Shown piece by piece: positions 2,865 through 29,840 of a stretch of DNA of 64,000 nucleotides. Position 1 is the stretch's first letter, and every line of letters begins with the position of its first letter. Made by a program: the position numbers and the translations under genes. The DNA is from a bacterium UBP15_UBA6099 (lineage in GTDB: Bacteria; UBP15; UBA6099): contig DIWT01000004.1 in the NCBI GenBank assembly GCA_002435745.1, positions 19,096 to 83,095 on the forward strand, in the 5' to 3' direction. Under the pieces are notes generated by a model, which was given only the letters and a program-made list of their open reading frames with translations, had not been told where the DNA came from and searched no databases.

Positions 2865-2892
2865 TAAAGCAAAACGCCGGGACAGCCGATGA
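2865..2892 (+). promoter_or_regulatory. Sigma-28 (FliA/SigD)-type promoter of flagellin 1
   Basis: TAAA (2865-2868), 16-nt spacer, GCCGATGA (2885-2892). This matches the known TAAA-N15-GCCGATAA consensus. It lies ~55 nt upstream of the ATG. Confidence 0.6.
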
Positions 2893-2900
2893 TATAACAC

Positions 2901-2916
2901 GGGTCACGGACGACCC
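2901..2916 (+). promoter_or_regulatory. 5'-leader hairpin presenting GGA in its loop (CsrA-type binding-site architecture)
   Basis: GGGTC-ACGGAC-GACCC: a 5-bp stem with a loop containing GGA. A second GGA lies in the SD AAGGAGGA (2931-2938). Confidence 0.5.
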
Positions 2917-2945
2917 GATGCGTTTCTTACAAGGAGGAAACCACA

Positions 2946-3773
2946 ATGTCTGTCGTAAACACCAACATTTCCGGTCTGATAGGACTGAACAATCTGAGGC
3001 TGACAAACCTCGGATTGCAGACGTCGCTTGAAAGGCTGTCGTCGGGGCTGAGAATCAATCACGCCTCGGACGACCCCAGCGGTCTTGCCATCGCCAAGGG
3101 GATGGAAGCGCAGATAGGCGGCATCCGCACCGCCGTGCAGAACGCCGAGGACGGGATCAACCTGATCCGCACCGCCGACGGCTCTCTGAGCGAGACGCAC
3201 GACATCCTGCTTAGGATGCGAGACCTCGCGGTGCGCGCGGCCAACGAAGCCACGCTCACTCCCGCGGATCTCAACAGGCTTCACAACGAGTTTGTAAGCC
3301 TGATCGCGGAGATCGACCGCAAGTCGGATGCCGTCACTTTCAACACGAAAGTTCTGTTCGACGGCACTTTCGCAGGAGGAGAGGTGCTTCAGGTCGGCCC
3401 GGACAACGGCGCTACTTTCCAACTAACCGTGTCCATTCCTGACCTTGATTCAACAGGGCTGGGGATCAACGCCGCGTCGCTGTCGCAGGTGGCAAACGCC
3501 CAAGCCGCCATCGACTCTGTCAACAGCGCCATCAACCAGATATCCGACGTGCGCGCGAACCTCGGCATACAGGAACGCCGCCTCGGCCACATCATCGACG
3601 ACCTGAAAGCGGCCGATATAAACATCTCCGCCGCCAAGAGCCGCATCTACGACGCGGACATGGCAGTCGAGATAAGCGAGTTCACCCGCCTGCAGATACT
3701 CCAGCAGAGCGGCACGGCGATACTCGCTCAGGCCAATGCGCAGCCTCAGAGCGTGCTGCAACTTCTGAAATAA
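2946..3773 (+). CDS. Flagellin (275 aa), paralogue 1
   Basis: Conserved flagellin N-terminus (LERLSSGLRINHASDDPSGLAIA) and C-terminus (DADMAVEISEFTRLQILQQSGTAILAQANAQPQSVLQLL). SD and ATG are present. Confidence 0.95.
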   Translation: MSVVNTNISGLIGLNNLRLTNLGLQTSLERLSSGLRINHASDDPSGLAIAKGMEAQIGGIRTAVQNAEDGINLIRTADGSLSETHDILLRMRDLAVRAANEATLTPADLNRLHNEFVSLIAEIDRKSDAVTFNTKVLFDGTFAGGEVLQVGPDNGATFQLTVSIPDLDSTGLGINAASLSQVANAQAAIDSVNSAINQISDVRANLGIQERRLGHIIDDLKAADINISAAKSRIYDADMAVEISEFTRLQILQQSGTAILAQANAQPQSVLQLLK

Positions 3774-3803
3774 AGATATAAGCATCTAATCGGAATTAAC
3801 TTC

Positions 3804-3838
3804 AAGCGCCTCCTTCGCAGGGGGCGCTTTTTTCTTTT
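3804..3838 (+). terminator. Rho-independent terminator after flagellin 1
   Basis: AGCGCCTCC-TTCGCA-GGGGGCGCT stem-loop followed by TTTTTTCTTTTT. Confidence 0.75.
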
Positions 3839-3901
3839 TACGCGCGCGGCAGGCCGGACGCGCATCTCTTTTTTGATCGATTGTTTATTTTGTCGCTTCG
3901 C

Positions 3902-3928
3902 TAAAGGCAGTGGCGATTTTGTCGATAT
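3902..3928 (+). promoter_or_regulatory. Sigma-28-type promoter of flagellin 2
   Basis: TAAA (3902-3905), 15-nt spacer, GTCGATAT (3921-3928). Confidence 0.6.
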
Positions 3929-3946
3929 ATAAAATGTTCGAAATGT

Positions 3947-3962
3947 CGATAATGGATTATCG
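3947..3962 (+). promoter_or_regulatory. 5'-leader hairpin with GGA loop
   Basis: CGATAA-TGGA-TTATCG: a 6-bp perfect stem with loop UGGA. The SD GGAGG is at 3974-3978. Confidence 0.5.
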
Positions 3963-3985
3963 GCGGAAAACATGGAGGTGTAATT

Positions 3986-4813
3986 ATGTCGGTAGTAAAC
4001 ACAAACATTTCCGGTCTGATAGGGCTGAACAACCTGAGGCTGACCAACCTCGGGTTGCAGACATCTTTGGAGAGGCTTTCGTCCGGGCTGAGGATAAATC
4101 ACGCGTCGGACGACCCCAGCGGACTTGCTATAGCAAAGGGCATGGAGGCGCAGATCGGCGGCATCCGCACCGCCGTGCAGAACGCCGAGGACGGGATTAA
4201 CCTGATCCGAACGGCAGACGGCTCGCTCAGCGAAACGCAGGACATCCTTTTCAGGATGCGCGACCTCGCGGTGCGAGCGGCAAACGAGGCCACGCTCACT
4301 TCGGCGGACCTGACGAGGCTCAACAACGAGTTCAACAGCCTCATGGACGAAATTGATCGCAAGTCGGACGCCGTTACGTTTAACACCAAGGGGCTGTTCG
4401 ACGGCACTTTCGCAGCAGGACAGGTCCTTCAGGTCGGCCCTGACAACGGAGCCACTTTCCAGTTGACTGTGTCCATCCCCGATCTCGACGCCGCCGGACT
4501 CGGAATCAATACGGCTTCTGTGGGAGTGGTGGCAAACGCTCAGTCGGCGATCGACTACATAAACAGCGCGATCAATCAAGTGTCCGACGTGCGCGCCAAT
4601 CTAGGCATTCAGGAACGCCGCCTCGGCCACATCATCGACGACCTGAAAGCCGCAGACATCAACATCTCCGCCGCCAAGAGCCGCATCTACGACGCGGACA
4701 TGGCAGTCGAGATAAGCGAGTTCACCCGCCTGCAGATACTGCAGCAGAGCGGCACGGCGATACTCGCTCAGGCAAACGCTCAGCCGCAGAGCGTGTTGCA
4801 ACTGCTTCAGTAG
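3986..4813 (+). CDS. Flagellin (275 aa), paralogue 2
   Basis: Same conserved termini as paralogue 1; ends LLQ instead of LLK. Confidence 0.95.
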   Translation: MSVVNTNISGLIGLNNLRLTNLGLQTSLERLSSGLRINHASDDPSGLAIAKGMEAQIGGIRTAVQNAEDGINLIRTADGSLSETQDILFRMRDLAVRAANEATLTSADLTRLNNEFNSLMDEIDRKSDAVTFNTKGLFDGTFAAGQVLQVGPDNGATFQLTVSIPDLDAAGLGINTASVGVVANAQSAIDYINSAINQVSDVRANLGIQERRLGHIIDDLKAADINISAAKSRIYDADMAVEISEFTRLQILQQSGTAILAQANAQPQSVLQLLQ

Positions 4814-4843
4814 CGCCGCCTTTCAATAAAAAGATATTTATTA

Positions 4844-4880
4844 AGCGCCTCCTTTTAAGGGGGCGCTTTTTTGCTTTTTT
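4844..4880 (+). terminator. Rho-independent terminator after flagellin 2
   Basis: AGCGCCTCC-TTTTAA-GGGGGCGCT stem-loop followed by TTTTTTGCTTTTTT. Confidence 0.75.
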
Positions 4881-4947
4881 CAAGGTTTTCTATCCGAGTC
4901 GGCGAGAAACGCGGGATGGCAGCGGCTCCTGATTTTTTCGCCGCGTA

Positions 4948-4974
4948 TAAAGTTATTTTTTTTTATGTCGATAA
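4948..4974 (+). promoter_or_regulatory. Sigma-28-type promoter of flagellin 3
   Basis: TAAA (4948-4951), 15-nt spacer, GTCGATAA (4967-4974). Confidence 0.6.
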
Positions 4975-4987
4975 AAAACATATAAAA

Positions 4988-5007
4988 GTCGATCACGGAT
5001 GATCGAC
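4988..5007 (+). promoter_or_regulatory. 5'-leader hairpin with GGA loop
   Basis: GTCGATC-ACGGAT-GATCGAC: a 7-bp perfect stem with a loop containing GGA. The SD GGAGG is at 5018-5022. Confidence 0.5.
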
Positions 5008-5029
5008 TCTACAACATGGAGGTGTAATT

Positions 5030-5857
5030 ATGTCGGTAGTAAACACAAACATTTCCGGTCTGATAGGACTGAACAATCTGAGGCTGACGAACCTCGGATT
5101 GCAGACGTCGCTTGAAAGGCTGTCGTCGGGGCTGAGAATCAATCACGCCTCAGACGACCCCAGCGGACTTGCCATCGCCAAAGGGATGGAGGCGCAGATC
5201 GGCGGCATCCGCACAGCAGTGCAGAACGCCGAGGACGGGATCAACCTGATCCGCACCGCCGACGGCTCTCTGAGCGAGACGCACGACATCCTGATGAGGA
5301 TGCGAGACCTCGCGGTGCGCGCGGCTAACGAGGCAACGCTCACATCCGCCGACCTGACGAGGCTCAACAACGAGTTCAACAGCCTCATGGCCGAGATCGA
5401 CCGCAAGTCGGACGCCGTCACGTTCAACACGAAAGTTCTGTTTGACGGCACGTTTTCCGCCGGACAGGTGCTTCAGATCGGTCCGGACAACGGAGCCACT
5501 TTCCAGTTGACCGTGCAGATTAACGACCTCGATTCCACAGGTCTCGGAATCAACACGGCTTCAGTGGGAGTGGTCGCAAACGCCCAGTCGGCGATCGACT
5601 ACATCAACAGCGCCATCAACCAGATATCCGACGTGCGCGCGAACCTCGGCATACAGGAACGCCGCCTCGGCCACATCATCGACGACCTGAAAGCGGCCGA
5701 TATAAACATCTCCGCCGCCAAGAGCCGCATCTACGACGCGGACATGGCAGTCGAGATAAGCGAGTTCACCCGCCTGCAGATACTCCAGCAGAGCGGCACG
5801 GCGATACTCGCTCAGGCAAACGCTCAGCCGCAGAGCGTGCTCCAGCTTCTTAAGTAA
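5030..5857 (+). CDS. Flagellin (275 aa), paralogue 3 (mosaic of 1 and 2)
   Basis: Same conserved termini. The central residues alternate between paralogue-1-like and paralogue-2-like blocks. Confidence 0.95.
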   Translation: MSVVNTNISGLIGLNNLRLTNLGLQTSLERLSSGLRINHASDDPSGLAIAKGMEAQIGGIRTAVQNAEDGINLIRTADGSLSETHDILMRMRDLAVRAANEATLTSADLTRLNNEFNSLMAEIDRKSDAVTFNTKVLFDGTFSAGQVLQIGPDNGATFQLTVQINDLDSTGLGINTASVGVVANAQSAIDYINSAINQISDVRANLGIQERRLGHIIDDLKAADINISAAKSRIYDADMAVEISEFTRLQILQQSGTAILAQANAQPQSVLQLLK

Positions 5858-5883: not shown

Positions 5884-5920
5884 AAAAAAAAGAAACCCGC
5901 CACGGCGGGTTTCTTTTTTT
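5884..5920. terminator. Bidirectional rho-independent terminator between convergent flagellin 3 and the radical SAM gene
   Basis: AAAAAAAAGAAACCCGCC-ACGG-CGGGTTTCTTTTTTT: a GC-rich stem flanked by an A-run and a T-run. Confidence 0.8.
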
Positions 5921-15913: not shown

Positions 15914-18484
15914 TCATTTATTAATTGACATGTTATAAAAAACACGACTGTCCTCGGCGCTTAGCACAGTATCGTAAAGGCCGATGTCTTCGCCTTCGTG
16001 CTTATTGACGCCTATATAAATTAGACTGGAATCTTCGTATCGTTTAAACTTATAGACAGCGTCATTCATCAATGCGCTATTGAATACTCCAAGGCTTACC
16101 AACAACTCGAACTCTTTCATAGTCAGGCCGGTTACTTTCTTGAACAAACCCGGCTCCAGTTGCGTGATGACATCCTTCAGACATCGCTCTCGATAATCGG
16201 TCAAATACATAAAGATTGGCAAACGCGTGGCGAACTTGATAAGTTTTTCCTGAATCTGCTTCCGCAAGCTTTTGTATTCCTTTTCCTCCTCGGTGAGCTT
16301 CTTCTTTTCCTTTGTGGAAAGCTCTTTGTCATTTGCTTCCTTTCTCGCCTTTTTCACGGCTTCCGACTTGTTGATAATAGTCTCGATGTCCTGATTGAGG
16401 TTGCGAAAGCCTTCAATTCTCATTAGCGCATCCATAGCGGCTTTGTTGCTCATGAGCCGTTTCAGGGCTTCGTTATCCACATTAACCAGCAAAGCGCTTT
16501 CCCAGCGCCTCGCCAAAAGAGTTGCTGTAGTTCCACTCATCGCCATATCCAGAATGCCTGCGGCATTGATCTCTTTCATTGAACTGCCGTCATAGGCTAA
16601 CACTGGAAGAAAGTTTATAAACTCCGCCACCTTCTTTTCGGGATTGGACTCATCGACATTCAGTCGGCAACTGTAATCGGCGATCTGCCGCAAAGCTCTG
16701 TCCGGCGCGAAATCAAAGACATAGCATTCCTCTTTAATGATTTGCTCCCGATTCGGCGCTGTGTTGTCGGGATTCCTGATTGACCAAGGTGATTGCACGC
16801 GGAAAGCAGCCTGAAAATAGGTCTCGGGACTGGACGAATTCCGCAACATGAGGATGCCGGTCCACGGCCTTACCGTGACTCCTGTGGTCAGTTTGCCGCA
16901 TGACAGGGTAATTGTTTTGGTTGCTAAGGGATCGTCCATGGCCTCCTGCACGGGCGGCAAAGCGGCAACGCCAATACCGGCGTCGCTTCCCGCCGCAACG
17001 ATTACTTCGTAATCGCGATAGAACTTATTCTGTTTCTTCGCCATAAGGTTGCGCATTGCGTGACACGAGGCAACACTGGGCAGAAACCAGAAGGTGTGCG
17101 ATAAAACATTCAGTAATCGCGCATCGGAAAACGGCATCGGCGGTTTTTGAGCGCCCAGTTTCAAGTTGTCAATATTTGTTGCCGAGAATGAGCCGCGTAT
17201 CAAATCAAGCCACTTCTGCACTTCATCCGTGTACGTAAATTTCGCCTTGTTTCCCGCCCCGGTAGCGGAAAAAAAAGTGTTAAGATCGAACTCATTGAAC
17301 TCGCCCTGCATGGCGATTTCGCGTATCGAATCGGGCAGTTGATAGGTCATTAACACCATTCGAGGAAGCGCCGCGTATGGATTGTCCCCGCCTGTCCATT
17401 CCTGCTTGGCCCGCTGCTCGTCCGAATACGTCCAGTTAAAAATCTGCTCCTCGATGAATTCGCCGGACGCAATGGCCCTAAACGGCGTGCCGGATAGATA
17501 GAGATATGCATTCGTGGTAATCGGCATAATCTCTTCGTCAAAATCCTCAATGCCGGCGCCTTCTCCAAACTCGATTTCTTTCTTGTCCTCCGCCGCAAAA
17601 AGCTCTCTGGCGTTTTCGCGCCACGCGCCGTAGTGATACTCGTCAAGGATGACACAATCCCAGTTGGTCTCATGCGCCCATTCATTCTTGGTCTTGAGCC
17701 CCCCGGTGCTTTTGTTCTTGCCAAGGTGATCCTGAAAAGAACCGAAACAGACGAAAGGCTTCTTCTTGTCCGCGTCTTCGTATGATAAACCGCCCGGCGA
17801 GATAAACTGCCACCCTTTGAAATCAATATGGCATTTCAAGTCTTCTTCCCATGCGTTCTGCACTGCGGGCTTGAAGGTCAGCACAAGAACCTTGCGCCAG
17901 TCCATTTTCTTAGCGAGCTGATAGGCGGCAAAGGTTTTGCCAAAGCGCATTTTAGCGTTCCATAGAAAGCGCGGCGACTTATCCTTGTTTTCCTTTCTGA
18001 AACTCTTGAAATAAGCGACGGTCTTTTCCACCGCCGCTTCCTGTTCCGGTCGCATCTTGAAATCAAGCGAACGGTTTTCCTCGTTCATTTCACCAGTTCT
18101 CAGAGCAATGACCGCCGCTTTTACCTGTTTTGCCGAACATTTGAACCATTCCCCTTTGGGATTTTTGACGCCGATGGCTCGTAAGCGACGGTGAACATCA
18201 TGGTCGGTGAAGACCGTGCCGTCATTGCGCATTGCGAATTCTTCAAGGACGATCCGATACGGCGGTTTTCCCGGCCTCAATGTCGGATATTGCTGTTCCA
18301 CGCGCGTCCGGGCGTCCGCTAATGTATAGCCGACTTTGAGCAATCCCGCGTATTGAGGATTTGTGTCCTCGTAGGCGTAGATGGTCGGTTTGGAATCCGG
18401 CCGCTGAGGGAAGAAATTATCAGGTTTCCTCGGCATTGTTTCCCAGCTTCTTTTTAGTTTTTGCGGGCGGAAGAAAGTTGTCAC
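15914..18484 (-). CDS. GIY-YIG (T5orf172-like) nuclease domain fused to an SF2 DEAD/DEAH-box helicase (putative restriction subunit)
   Basis: The N-terminus fits the GIY-YIG/T5orf172 pattern (TIYAYED...GLLKVGYT...R..Q...HDVHRRL...GEWFKC). Walker A is MRFGKTFAA and motif II is LDEYHYG. A more likely start is the ATG at 18436. Confidence 0.75.
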   Translation of the reverse strand: MTTFFRPQKLKRSWETMPRKPDNFFPQRPDSKPTIYAYEDTNPQYAGLLKVGYTLADARTRVEQQYPTLRPGKPPYRIVLEEFAMRNDGTVFTDHDVHRRLRAIGVKNPKGEWFKCSAKQVKAAVIALRTGEMNEENRSLDFKMRPEQEAAVEKTVAYFKSFRKENKDKSPRFLWNAKMRFGKTFAAYQLAKKMDWRKVLVLTFKPAVQNAWEEDLKCHIDFKGWQFISPGGLSYEDADKKKPFVCFGSFQDHLGKNKSTGGLKTKNEWAHETNWDCVILDEYHYGAWRENARELFAAEDKKEIEFGEGAGIEDFDEEIMPITTNAYLYLSGTPFRAIASGEFIEEQIFNWTYSDEQRAKQEWTGGDNPYAALPRMVLMTYQLPDSIREIAMQGEFNEFDLNTFFSATGAGNKAKFTYTDEVQKWLDLIRGSFSATNIDNLKLGAQKPPMPFSDARLLNVLSHTFWFLPSVASCHAMRNLMAKKQNKFYRDYEVIVAAGSDAGIGVAALPPVQEAMDDPLATKTITLSCGKLTTGVTVRPWTGILMLRNSSSPETYFQAAFRVQSPWSIRNPDNTAPNREQIIKEECYVFDFAPDRALRQIADYSCRLNVDESNPEKKVAEFINFLPVLAYDGSSMKEINAAGILDMAMSGTTATLLARRWESALLVNVDNEALKRLMSNKAAMDALMRIEGFRNLNQDIETIINKSEAVKKARKEANDKELSTKEKKKLTEEEKEYKSLRKQIQEKLIKFATRLPIFMYLTDYRERCLKDVITQLEPGLFKKVTGLTMKEFELLVSLGVFNSALMNDAVYKFKRYEDSSLIYIGVNKHEGEDIGLYDTVLSAEDSRVFYNMSINK

Positions 18485-19280
18485 CGGTCACCACGCCGCG
18501 TCCGGTTTTCCGCTCCAGTTCCAGCCTCGCCTTTTTTGCGATTCTTCCGCCTTTTCTGCCCGCCTGCGCATTTTCATCCATGCCGGTTGCTTCAACGCTC
18601 TCCGCAATCTGGCGGGTGGAAAGCTCCGCTAAAGCTGTAAAAATCAGTTCCGCCTCGCTCATGTGGTCGCGTAGGTTTTGAGTTTTGAGGTCCTTTATCT
18701 GCTTGTGTTTCTTGACCGAAACCCCGCTCCATTCTTTGTGAATTATATTGGTCAGAATGGCGTATTCGTCTTCGCCTTTAATCTCGTGGTCTTTCCAGTA
18801 ATCGGTGAGTTTATTGCGGGTTTCCTGCCCCATCATCCGCTGCTGAATCCATTTTTCGCTTCTGCCGCTCTGTTGCCAGTAGTCGCGCGCCCGGTCAAGG
18901 GATCGGGCCGGATCGCTCATGTCCTGAATGCGCTCGTAACCCGCTTTGGCAAGCCATAGCTTGATGGGTTCCGCTCTGGGACTGGGAACCGACTGTATGA
19001 TTCGCAGAAGAGCCTCCGGGCCGGCCGCGTCGGTCAGGTATTTTTTCCCGTCAGCGGCTTCCATTTTCAGTTGGTGACAATTTGTCACCGACTGATTTCC
19101 CTCTTTCTTGAGGCGTTCTTTCAACTTGTTCCAGTACTTCCGGGCAGTCTGATAATCCGGCTGCTGAATCAGCGCGGCGATGATATCCACAACGGAAAAC
19201 AACCATGTTTCTGTCTTTTCATCATAAATCCTGCGGATTTTAAAGTTTTCAAAAACCGCAAGCGCCTTTTCTTCATTCAT
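18420..19280 (-). CDS. Bro-N / DinD-like (DNA-damage-inducible protein D family) protein
   Basis: The N-terminal pattern FENFKIRRIYDEKTETWLFSVVDIIAAL and the overall 286-aa layout match my recollection of this family. It overlaps both neighbouring genes. Confidence 0.55.
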   Translation of the reverse strand: MNEEKALAVFENFKIRRIYDEKTETWLFSVVDIIAALIQQPDYQTARKYWNKLKERLKKEGNQSVTNCHQLKMEAADGKKYLTDAAGPEALLRIIQSVPSPRAEPIKLWLAKAGYERIQDMSDPARSLDRARDYWQQSGRSEKWIQQRMMGQETRNKLTDYWKDHEIKGEDEYAILTNIIHKEWSGVSVKKHKQIKDLKTQNLRDHMSEAELIFTALAELSTRQIAESVEATGMDENAQAGRKGGRIAKKARLELERKTGRGVVTGDNFLPPAKTKKKLGNNAEET

Positions 19281-20781
19281 TGTTAATCTCCATCGGTCGA
19301 ACTATTAAGTCAATAAAATCAATTTCGTCGTCTGACAAACCAAAATGAGCGAAGAGTTTTTCGTCTGTCCATATTTTTGACATAGGCAGAAGAGGCACAA
19401 ATGAAAATTTGTCCTTTGTGTTGTCCTGTGTGTTTTTGCGTAAGCCCACCAGAAACCGCAGAAACTTTGTTCTAAGATATTTGTCCAGATTTTTTGCGGC
19501 GCTTTCGGTTTCATAAGCTCCAACTACAATGTAGGTCTCGGTGCAAGCGCTGGATGGAGGCGCTATAATCGGCTTGCCCATTATCATTCGTGGATAATCG
19601 CGAGCTTCACCTCCTTCCCCGTATGCCTTAGAAATTAGAACCTTCCACAAATCCAGCAACTCCATTCCATTTTTGATGTCCGATTTTTCTATCCATCCGA
19701 CAGTTTTTGTTGCATACAATTTAATGTTGCCTTTTCCAGTAGGCCGGACAAATGTCGGGAGCCCAAATGGTTTTCGACTATAGATTTGTTCACTTATTGA
19801 TGTGTATTTCTTTTCTTTTACCTTTTCGAGAATCGAAATAGCCTTATTGAATCGAACAAATGAATCAAATTGATCCAAAGAGCGCTTCATCGTATCATCC
19901 ATGCCACTCATGCGTGTAGTTACTTCACATTGACCGCTGTAATCCCGCTCCCATAAAAAATAACATACACCGCCAATCACCTTGACGCCGGGGAAAACAT
20001 CAGATGCTATTGGATAGTCAACCAAATGAGAGATTCTGCGATCCTTTAGCATTGTATCGCGAAAAACATCCAGCCCTTTCCCACCGGCAAACCATCGGGA
20101 TGGGATAATCATTGACAAATATCTCGGTTCAAGTTTTTTAGCTTGTTCGACAAAATTGTGATAAATAGGAGATGAGCCTGTGCTATCTCCAGCATCACTC
20201 AACTGATACGGTGGATTACCTATAATTACATCAAATTTCATATTGAATATCGCCTCCGGATTTTCCGTGTGAATAAATTGATAGGCATGGGTTTCGAGTT
20301 CTTCGCCCCGCTCATAGCTTTCCTGACTGGCGCCGCAGAAAACGCAGCGCCCGTTTTCCCATGTGTGCTCCACTCGCTCAAAGCGAATATTCCCTTGCGG
20401 GTCGTCGAAAGTTTCACAGACGGAGTATTTTCCATTGGCCGTTTTGGAGCAGTAAACAGAACGGCGGGAAAGCAACGCGGTCAACTCAGTTATTGCCACG
20501 CCGAAGATCTGGTTCTTGAAGATGTGGTTGATTCGAGCCTGCCTGTCCGGGATTTTTTTTTCAAGCCCCGCATCCAACCGCCTTGCGATTTCGCGCGGAA
20601 ACACACCGGACTTACAGAACGGATCGAGAAACCGGGTGTTCTTATTGCCCCAGATTTCCGGAGGCAGCAAATCCAATATTTGATTAACCAATTGCGGCGG
20701 CGTGAACACTTCGTCGCTGCTCAGATTGGCCAGACAGGTCAGCACATCCGGGTTGTAGCTATTGCCTGTCAACATCGGCAA
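19273..20781 (-). CDS. Eco57I-type N6-adenine DNA methyltransferase
   Basis: AdoMet motif LDPFCKSGVF and catalytic motif IIGNPPYQ. The downstream pattern SPIYHNFVEQA...IIPSRWFAGGKGLD is typical of this family. Confidence 0.8.
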   Translation of the reverse strand: MPMLTGNSYNPDVLTCLANLSSDEVFTPPQLVNQILDLLPPEIWGNKNTRFLDPFCKSGVFPREIARRLDAGLEKKIPDRQARINHIFKNQIFGVAITELTALLSRRSVYCSKTANGKYSVCETFDDPQGNIRFERVEHTWENGRCVFCGASQESYERGEELETHAYQFIHTENPEAIFNMKFDVIIGNPPYQLSDAGDSTGSSPIYHNFVEQAKKLEPRYLSMIIPSRWFAGGKGLDVFRDTMLKDRRISHLVDYPIASDVFPGVKVIGGVCYFLWERDYSGQCEVTTRMSGMDDTMKRSLDQFDSFVRFNKAISILEKVKEKKYTSISEQIYSRKPFGLPTFVRPTGKGNIKLYATKTVGWIEKSDIKNGMELLDLWKVLISKAYGEGGEARDYPRMIMGKPIIAPPSSACTETYIVVGAYETESAAKNLDKYLRTKFLRFLVGLRKNTQDNTKDKFSFVPLLPMSKIWTDEKLFAHFGLSDDEIDFIDLIVRPMEINNE

Positions 20782-21409
20782 CCTCCAGAAAGTGCGTTAA
20801 CGGGTACTCTTTCACAGGCTCATTTAAGTATGCCTCGTTATTCTCATCGCTGAATATCATTAGTTGGTGTTGCTTGTCTACTAGAAACGAAAGCATGAAA
20901 TCGCGCCGCTTTAGCATGCTACCGTTGACCGGCGACCATTCAGAAAATATAATCGGTCGCGGATTGTTTCCCACGGTTTTCAGATCAAGCGCGTCTCCAT
21001 GAATAATATTGCGCTCAAGGATATATTTGACCGCATTCCGACATTCATTCCTTGCGCCGAATATAAAAAGGCGCGTGTAGTTCAGATCAAAGATGTCAAA
21101 AAGCCGGTTGCGACATTCCTGAACATTATCCTTAAGAATATCAATGCCGTATATGGAGGACACGGCAAGAACAGCATTCCTCTCGTACTCCAGTTGAATC
21201 TTTTCGTATCGGAATTCAACGACGCGCAATTTCCGTTCCAGAATTTCCGACAGAAAATTGCCCGTGCCGCATGCGGGTTCAAGAAACCGGGATTCGATCC
21301 TTTCTGTTTCCTGTTTCACCAGATCAAGCATGGCGTTGACTTCTCGTTTTCCAGTCAATACCTCGCCATGATCAGCGACCCTCTTCTTGGAGACAACTTG
21401 CTTTTCCAT
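20759..21409 (-). CDS. Short methyltransferase-like protein (AdoMet-binding motifs only, no NPPY)
   Basis: HGEVLTGKREVNAMLDLV (motif X-like), EPACGTGNFL (motif I), YGIDI and HGDAL are present. No (N/D)PP(Y/F) is found in the 216 aa. The gene overlaps the downstream MTase by 23 nt. Confidence 0.55.
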   Translation of the reverse strand: MEKQVVSKKRVADHGEVLTGKREVNAMLDLVKQETERIESRFLEPACGTGNFLSEILERKLRVVEFRYEKIQLEYERNAVLAVSSIYGIDILKDNVQECRNRLFDIFDLNYTRLFIFGARNECRNAVKYILERNIIHGDALDLKTVGNNPRPIIFSEWSPVNGSMLKRRDFMLSFLVDKQHQLMIFSDENNEAYLNEPVKEYPLTHFLEVADVDRQ

Positions 21410-29546: not shown

Positions 29547-29840
29547 CTATATATCTTTCAGAGGTTTTGCGCTGTTGCATATAGCGGCAATTTCAACATA
29601 TCCGTCTTTGAGCCGATAGACGATTCTGTAATTTTTAAAAATTCTTTCCCTGATATTTTTATCTTCATATTCTGACAGAGCGCGGCCGGCCAAAGGGAAA
29701 TCCGGAATAGATTCAACGATTGCAATAATGCGTTTTGCGAAAAGAGCCGCATAATATTCGGAGTCTCTGGAAATGAATTCGCAGACGTCTTCAAGATCGG
29801 CAATGGCTCCCGGCGCCCATCTTATTCTTTTGATATCCAT
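29547..29840 (-). CDS. RelE/ParE-family type II toxin
   Basis: 97 aa with a typical pattern (...IFKNYRIVYRLKDGYVEIAAICNS). It overlaps the upstream antitoxin gene by 19 nt. Confidence 0.8.
   Translation of the reverse strand: MDIKRIRWAPGAIADLEDVCEFISRDSEYYAALFAKRIIAIVESIPDFPLAGRALSEYEDKNIRERIFKNYRIVYRLKDGYVEIAAICNSAKPLKDI

Follow-up and report, generated by a model that had tools for sequence, protein, structure and literature searches.

The window analysed here is a 64,000-nucleotide (nt) stretch of contig DIWT01000004.1 (assembly GCA_002435745.1, positions 19,096 to 83,095) from the bacterium UBP15_UBA6099, and coordinates are counted from its first letter unless a related locus is named. 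Between 2946 and 5857 it carries three tandem flagellin genes of 275 amino acids (aa) each, and our subject is the short leader in front of each gene, in which a sigma-28-type promoter is followed by a hairpin exposing GGA in its loop and then by the Shine-Dalgarno (SD) sequence (Table 1). We read these leaders as probable translational operators of the CsrA type, carried by a helix that is retained among related flagellin genes while its sequence changes. The three proteins are 92–96% identical in pairwise comparison (flagellin 2 shares 92% of its residues with flagellin 1 and 96% with flagellin 3) and their coding DNA is 84–90% identical; the leaders, compared by eye, are much more diverged, and the hairpin is nonetheless retained. 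Since each gene is followed by its own terminator, lying at 3804–3829, 4843–4868 and 5893–5912 with slightly longer extents in Table 1, and preceded by its own TAAA-N15/16-GYCGATRW element, the genes are, as far as these predicted signals tell, three separate transcription units, each under a sigma-28-type promoter.

Table 1. Features of the three flagellin transcription units (window coordinates; negative positions are counted from the start codon; bp, base pairs)
Feature	Position	Strand	Elements	Basis or proposed role
Flagellin 1 sigma-28-type promoter	2865–2892	+	TAAA 2865–2868, N16, GCCGATGA 2885–2892	pattern match
Leader 1 hairpin	2900–2917	+	6-bp stem CGGGUC/GACCCG (C2900–C2905 / G2912–G2917), hexaloop ACGGAC (A2906–C2911); GGA 2908–2910, first G at −38	proposed first site
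Leader 1 SD and start	2931–2948	+	SD AAGGAGGA 2931–2938 (contains AAGGA; GGAs 2933–2938), start codon 2946–2948	proposed second site
Flagellin 1	2946–3773	+	275 aa	Pfam Flagellin_N 2e-35, Flagellin_C 6e-26
Intrinsic terminator after flagellin 1	3804–3839	+		terminator scan
Flagellin 2 sigma-28-type promoter	3902–3928	+	TAAA, N15, GTCGATAT	pattern match
Leader 2 hairpin	3944–3965	+	8-bp stem UGUCGAUA/UAUCGGCG (U3944–A3951 / U3958–G3965), hexaloop AUGGAU (3952–3957); GGA 3954–3956, first G at −32	proposed first site
Leader 2 SD and start	3972–3988	+	AUGGAGGUG, GGA 3974–3976, ATG 3986	proposed second site
Flagellin 2	3986–4813	+	275 aa	precomputed Pfam hits
Intrinsic terminator after flagellin 2	4843–4878	+		terminator scan
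Flagellin 3 sigma-28-type promoter	4948–4974	+	TAAA, N15, GTCGATAA	pattern match
Leader 3 hairpin	4987–5008	+	8-bp stem AGUCGAUC/GAUCGACU (A4987–C4994 / G5001–U5008), hexaloop ACGGAU (4995–5000); GGA 4997–4999, first G at −33	proposed first site
Leader 3 SD and start	5016–5032	+	AUGGAGGUG, GGA 5018–5020, ATG 5030	proposed second site
Flagellin 3	5030–5857	+	275 aa	precomputed Pfam hits
Terminator-like hairpin after flagellin 3	5893–5920	+	AAACCCGC-CACG-GCGGGUUU and T run	read from sequence; unlisted by scan

The promoter pattern TAAA-N15/16-GYCGATRW has exactly three matches in the 64 kb, all of them 5' of flagellin leaders and against 0.1 expected by chance, and it is also present in the orthologous loci. 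When sigma-28 promoter elements resembling TAAA-N15/16-GCCGATAA were sought 5' of a late flagellar gene, all three leaders matched. An earlier examination of the letters alone (hereafter the sequence-only reading) had written the promoter motif with (G/T)CGAT, which is literally correct for leaders 2 and 3, whereas leader 1 reads GCCGATGA. The hairpin stems start 7–15 nt past the −10 box, near the predicted 5' end, and transcription would be expected to begin 5' of each hairpin. As a separate observation, hairpin 2 and hairpin 3 each have a 5' arm (3945–3952, GTCGATAA; 4988–4995, GTCGATCA) that repeats the −10 box (GTCGATAT and GTCGATAA) about 20 nt upstream. Neither leader 1 nor the other leaders of related flagellin genes show this repetition, which may have been left behind by a duplication or may be a −10-like element early in the transcribed region.

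The sequence-only reading had also claimed a GGA-loop hairpin in every leader, and RNAfold recovers all three, with coordinates that agree with the sequence and stems slightly longer than first noted. Their z-scores against shuffled sequences are −3.4, −1.7 and −3.3 for hairpins 1, 2 and 3. Written with six-base loops, all three conform to ANGGAN; in the minimum-free-energy fold of hairpin 2 an A-U pair closes and leaves a UGGA tetraloop. The description of the stems as unrelated did not stand, as the 5' arms of hairpins 2 (UGUCGAUA) and 3 (AGUCGAUC) have GUCGAU in common and the second pair is U-A in all three. The window stems are paralogs that have diverged; pairs 1, 3 and 5 show compensatory double changes. 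In leaders 1, 2 and 3 the SD (AAGGA or AUGGA) presents its first GGA 25, 20 and 21 nt past the loop GGA, a distance that falls inside the inter-site spacing of 10–63 nt that Mercante reportedly found functional in 2009. The SD is predicted to be mostly unpaired in leaders 2 and 3. A second hairpin (GUUUCUU/AGGAAAC, 2922–2928 with 2935–2941) is predicted for leader 1 alone and would partly sequester the SD; its orthologs are identical in sequence and so offer no covariation.

The hairpin was followed into related flagellin genes at 35 loci from a scan of one genome per species and 60 more from a metagenome scan (10-kb flanks), and the leaders of genes that match the window protein at the N-terminus with 75% identity or more are referred to as clade leaders. 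A GGA-loop hairpin with 5 bp or more is present in 67 of 74 distinct clade leaders, and in 55 of the 74 a stem of 4 bp or more bears the strict ANGGAN hexaloop. Although 29 different 5'-arm sequences occur among the clade hairpins, an A stands two nt 5' of the GGA in nearly all of them, the search having required only GGA in the loop. The other loop positions vary in the 55 strict loops: the base before GGA is U in 29, A in 13, C in 10 and G in 3, and the base after it is evenly spread over all four nucleotides. The hexaloop is closed by a C-G pair in 33 of the 55. The clade hairpins have a mean stability of −8.2 kcal/mol and keep their place in the leader, with the loop GGA mainly 32–39 nt from the ATG (a second cluster lies at 43–48 nt) and most often 21–27 nt from the SD.

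For the covariation analysis, the alignment was anchored solely on A.GGA in a fixed interval 5' of the ATG, and motifs without a stem were retained, because the alignment must not be fitted to the structure. In a first set of 45 segments, 72.9% of the alignment cells pair, against 52.2% after shuffling (none of 500 shuffles reaches the observed value) and 26–42% when the partner is slid by 1–3 columns; the covariation score is 0.49 versus 0.20. A second set of 65 segments, ungapped, was obtained with the interval narrowed to −60 to −28 and three segments dropped whose ANGGA ran into the main hairpin's stem. There, 76.7% of the cells pair against 56.5% in shuffles (again 0 of 500 reach) and 26–43% in slid registers, with a covariation score of 0.56 versus 0.23. 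Double compensatory changes occur at all eight stem pairs, and the inner six pairs are formed in 78–97% of the sequences. The idea, raised in the sequence-only reading, that structure is kept while stem sequence turns over is borne out by these values, and the comparison provides strong evidence for a conserved RNA helix beneath an invariant loop.

The hairpin set far exceeds chance. GGA-loop hairpins with stems of at least 6 bp occur in the window at 0.52 per kb per strand, and only 13 of its 501 ANGGA motifs are flanked, in the hexaloop register, by arms that form 4 bp or more, compared with 35 of 52 ANGGA motifs located at −75 to −22 in clade leaders. Among those 13 stemmed motifs, an SD and an ATG follow at the three flagellin copies only; within the window the hairpin in its leader context is thus restricted to flagellin genes, pointing to flagellin mRNA as the target. 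In a search with a covariance model of the hairpin, the window leaders come first (24.3, 24.6 and 24.9 bits for leaders 1, 2 and 3), scores that are high by construction, as the window leaders or identical orthologs were in the training set; the next-best match in the window reaches 16 bits and lies inside relA. The hairpin-only model, R1, is information-poor (0.59 bits per position). Rfam 15 yielded no match at gathering score, either for the window or for 10 related loci, and the sub-threshold matches were driven by terminators.

Beyond the clade the hairpin fades. It was found in 3 of 17 leaders of flagellins that are 49–75% identical at the N-terminus and in 1–2 of 18 below 49%; among these flagellins are many from marine metagenomes whose sigma-28 promoters are clear. 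Leaders from Pelosinus and Pelosinus-like flagellin genes contain GGC[AAGGAU]GCC with the GGA at −35, and at these loci fliW and csrA lie directly 5' of the flagellin gene. The Pelosinus stem, of about 3 bp, falls under our counting thresholds and is missed by the covariance model. The close relatives of the window are metagenome-assembled genomes (MAGs) such as ADurb.Bin236, USMO_maxbin.112, USCA_metabat.19, DeMMO6_30 and MAG168, from anaerobic digesters, groundwater and the deep subsurface. A literature search on MAG names and accessions brought up nothing but a paper on SepRS. RelA identities run from 98% down to 63% and then drop to at most 45%, with named Firmicutes, the nearest named relatives, at about 39–40%; owing to this fall-off, the lineage is, by RelA comparison, deep-branching and uncharacterised.

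Two further observations concern the flagellin paralogs of this lineage. The loci of ADurb.Bin236 (L002, L005, L015) contain at least seven flagellin N-termini, and those of USMO_maxbin.112 (L003, L007, L008, L011) a similar number or more; the paralogs are scattered over several loci amid housekeeping genes. Other clade flagellin paralogs, at related loci outside the window, are preceded by a longer leader that we call type-B (L005:4290–4402, L019:960–1069 and 2060–2167, L020:2390–2496, L024:6690–6798, L066, L064 and L070). It consists, in order, of AGGAGG, an 8-bp hairpin with loop AWGCR, an ANGGAN hairpin, an invariant GGCU, and AUGGA-N-GGAGG as the SD. RNAalifold on 15 type-B sequences identified compensatory changes in 11 of 14 pairs, and the leader is without an Rfam match; it could be either a CsrA leader with several sites or a structured RNA of a separate kind.

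High-affinity sites of CsrA and RsmE are hairpins with an ANGGAN hexaloop, the consensus obtained by SELEX (systematic ligand evolution by exponential enrichment) reads RUACARGGAUGU, its six-base loop being closed by C-G, and a single CsrA dimer anchored to a hairpin of this kind bridges across to a weaker site at the SD and excludes the ribosome (PMC7652899). Since the loop, the closing pair, the position, the spacing and the target gene of the hairpins described here all match published CsrA sites, we consider it probable, at roughly 0.8, that the leaders are CsrA-type translational operators on sigma-28 transcripts, with FliW as the presumed antagonist. The sequence-only reading had likewise taken the hairpin and the SD for a paired CsrA-type site; the covariation, the ANGGAN loop, the position at −32 to −38 and the Pelosinus parallel support this on the RNA side, and the protein half, namely CsrA binding, repression of translation and its relief by FliW, is what we infer. 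The short leader would then offer two sites to one dimer of a CsrA-family RNA-binding protein: a first, high-affinity site formed by the ANGGAN hexaloop on its 6–8 bp stem near the predicted 5' end of the mRNA, and a second, weaker one formed by A(A/U)GGA within the SD, 20–25 nt further 3'. A dimer tethered at the hairpin could bridge to the SD, block binding of the 30S subunit and so repress flagellin translation, and by analogy with Bacillus subtilis and Campylobacter jejuni, FliW would lift the repression after flagellin export.

Several points weigh against this interpretation. The window copies are three paralogs and hence not independent samples. In leader 1 only 7 nt separate the end of the −10 box from the stem, and the true start of its transcript could clip 1–2 bp of the stem. 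A second GGA in the SD, to which the sequence-only reading had attached significance, is present in all three leaders but adds little as independent evidence, as GGAGG is normal for any strong SD. Moreover, no csrA, fliW or fliA turned up in the window, in the readable part of the 104-kb contig (roughly 81 kb), or in about 0.5 Mb of flanking sequence at related loci, which comes from many different genomes and covers a small part of each. Searches by tblastn of the window and all loci with CsrA, FliW and SigD of B. subtilis and Escherichia coli gave matches in Pelosinus-like loci only, and no SigD-like match in any of the searched sequence. Hidden Markov models of CsrA and FliW, built from the B. 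subtilis and E. coli sequences together with those of Pelosinus, were run against six-frame open reading frames (ORFs) of at least 40 aa; these also matched in Pelosinus-like loci only and nowhere in clade sequence. In a CsrA profile search of a large protein collection, the best 120 of 8000 matches were all from Pelosinus, Bacillus or enteric bacteria. Within the 10-kb flanks of the 60 metagenomic flagellin loci, csrA and fliW are absent from the clade loci, and a Pfam scan of the flanking ORFs at related loci revealed unrelated housekeeping genes. Taken over the window, the contig and the 3–10 kb flanks of about 60 loci, the non-detection of csrA, fliW and fliA is weak evidence against a CsrA-type operator. 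The poorly conserved FlaG of one related locus (L020), used as bait for flagellar clusters, gave 7 matches. On one distant contig reached in this way (L045:571–3743; Logan SRR29396569_883), flgN-flgK-flgL is followed by a gene for a Pol-beta nucleotidyltransferase and not by fliW-csrA, a gene order that also speaks against it, the relationship of this contig to the window lineage being possible but uncertain.

Given that over 60 flagellin loci showed neither gene nearby and that another gene occupies the usual flgL-fliW-csrA position in this possibly related contig, the lineage might have lost CsrA and FliW, or never had them, with another factor reading a CsrA-like hairpin that is kept under strong purifying and compensatory selection; we regard this as very unlikely. 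Quite unlikely, too, is that the ANGGAN hairpin of this lineage is recognised by an RNA-binding factor from outside the CsrA family. This idea draws on the same failure to find CsrA and FliW in the searched clade sequence and on the different gene in that position, but the searches for csrA and fliW covered a small part of any one genome, and we know of no other protein family described with specificity for an ANGGAN hexaloop. CsrA is, furthermore, encoded in about 75% of sequenced bacterial genomes (PMC4894983), and the FliW-CsrA pair is regarded as ancestral in flagellated bacteria (PMC13443453).

The proximity of the stems to the predicted 5' end, together with their stability, would suit a 5'-terminal element that merely protects the mRNA against 5'-end-dependent decay, with no specific protein partner. 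Such a stabiliser requires no particular loop, whereas the clade keeps A and GGA in the loop, tolerates 29 stems beneath it and repeats the same loop at a fixed distance from the SD; we therefore hold it to be quite improbable as the whole explanation, while stabilisation of the mRNA could be an additional effect of the hairpin. Very unlikely, in our view, is that the loop serves as an SD-like standby or enhancer site, recruiting the 30S subunit through pairing with the anti-SD of 16S rRNA. GGA(G) does belong to the SD core, and 14 of the 55 loops read ANGGAG; however, U or C precedes the GGA in 39 of the 55, where a perfect SD (AAGGAGG) has A, the even spread of the following base betrays no preference for G, and the loop has the hexaloop format of a CsrA site and not that of an extended SD. 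That the palindromes are DNA operators of a dimeric transcription factor is highly implausible: every hairpin doubles as an inverted repeat just 3' of a promoter, but an operator conserves its sequence, and here the arms are far too variable (29 variants), with only the asymmetric centre A-N-G-G-A fixed, a pattern expected of an RNA loop. Attenuators or terminators were considered as well and rejected, as the plus strand is without a U tract after the hairpins, and the minus-strand terminator matches at 2917–2900 and 5010–4985 are the leader hairpins read in reverse beside A-rich leader sequence.

The surroundings of the flagellin trio are not flagellar. In JGI metagenome 3300002498 the window lies within a contig of 103.7 kb, TOLCLC_10003310. 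It is flanked by a CN-hydrolase gene and a radical-SAM gene, and the readable remainder of the contig contains housekeeping functions (SecDF, RecJ, RelA, a Mur ligase, glycerol metabolism, polysaccharide synthesis) and an MmeI-type restriction enzyme; no flagellar genes other than the flagellins were found in the readable contig. Restriction- or defence-like genes, encoding a T5orf172/ResIII helicase, a Bro-N protein, an Eco57I/MmeI-type methyltransferase and an MmeI-family enzyme, lie at 15914–21409 in the window and at L037:11526–14402, about 850 bp past its right end, and a ParE toxin gene is located at about 29547–29840. At the left end of the window, a pair of inverted repeats of about 33 nt each (81–116 and 243–278) is separated by about 128 nt, with convergent genes on either side. 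Each repeat holds the palindrome GTTACCAAGG-NNN-CCTTGGTAAC (92–114 and 245–267), and the fold of 60–300 has a z-score of −8.4. The pair also occurs in the close relatives L002 and L049, and one copy in L050, with no dispersal elsewhere; it could be a MITE-like (miniature inverted-repeat transposable element) element or a structured RNA.

The proposed mechanism is already established in Firmicutes, Campylobacterota and spirochetes, and what is new here is a further case in an uncultured lineage. If the CsrA-type interpretation is correct, it extends this form of flagellin control to a deep-branching, uncultured anaerobic lineage, and it predicts csrA, fliW and fliA in these MAGs as well as the same checkpoint on every flagellin paralog, apparently at least seven per genome. 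The natural covariation series, with 29 stems under one invariant ANGGAN loop, is unusually rich and could seed an Rfam-style model of flagellin CsrA leaders, for which there is at present no family.

The closest counterpart is the hag leader of B. subtilis, which shares with the leaders described here a sigma-28/SigD-type promoter, a GGA stem-loop about 35–38 nt before the ATG, a second GGA in the SD and a short flagellin (275–304 aa). CsrA is bound there at two GGA stem-loops, and the G-38A change in the upstream loop abolishes repression (PMC13443453); the hairpin-loop site BS1, the SD site BS2 and the FliW partner switch go back to Yakhnin 2007 and Mukherjee 2011 (via PMC7652899 and PMC13443453). 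Unlike hag, the window has three tandem paralogs, and related genomes apparently at least seven, with a separate site for every copy. The fliW-csrA pair adjoins the flagellin gene in B. subtilis and Pelosinus, whereas the flagellins here stand amid housekeeping genes, and neither csrA nor fliW was seen. The C. jejuni flaA leader, with its stem-loops SL1 and SL2, is likewise transcribed from a sigma-28-dependent promoter and has ANGGA loop motifs backed by compensatory changes across species, and fliW is not beside csrA in that organism (Dugar 2016, PMC4894983). Its second ANGGA, however, lies in a second stem-loop that covers the ribosome-binding site, while only leader 1 has a partial SD hairpin in the window. 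Among spirochetes, Borrelia burgdorferi flaB and Treponema denticola flaB1/flaB2 resemble the present case in that several flagellin genes each have CsrA sites near the SD, two of them in T. denticola (PMC9481697). The csrA gene of T. denticola lies in a flgN-flgK-flgL-fliW-csrA cluster, which is not what the one possibly related contig shows here. The E. coli glgC leader (PMC7652899) provides the parallel for the arrangement itself, in that a high-affinity hairpin-loop site tethers the dimer, which bridges over a short distance (20–25 nt in our leaders) to a weaker site at the SD; it differs in its target and in its antagonist, which is the CsrB/C small RNAs in E. coli and presumably FliW here.

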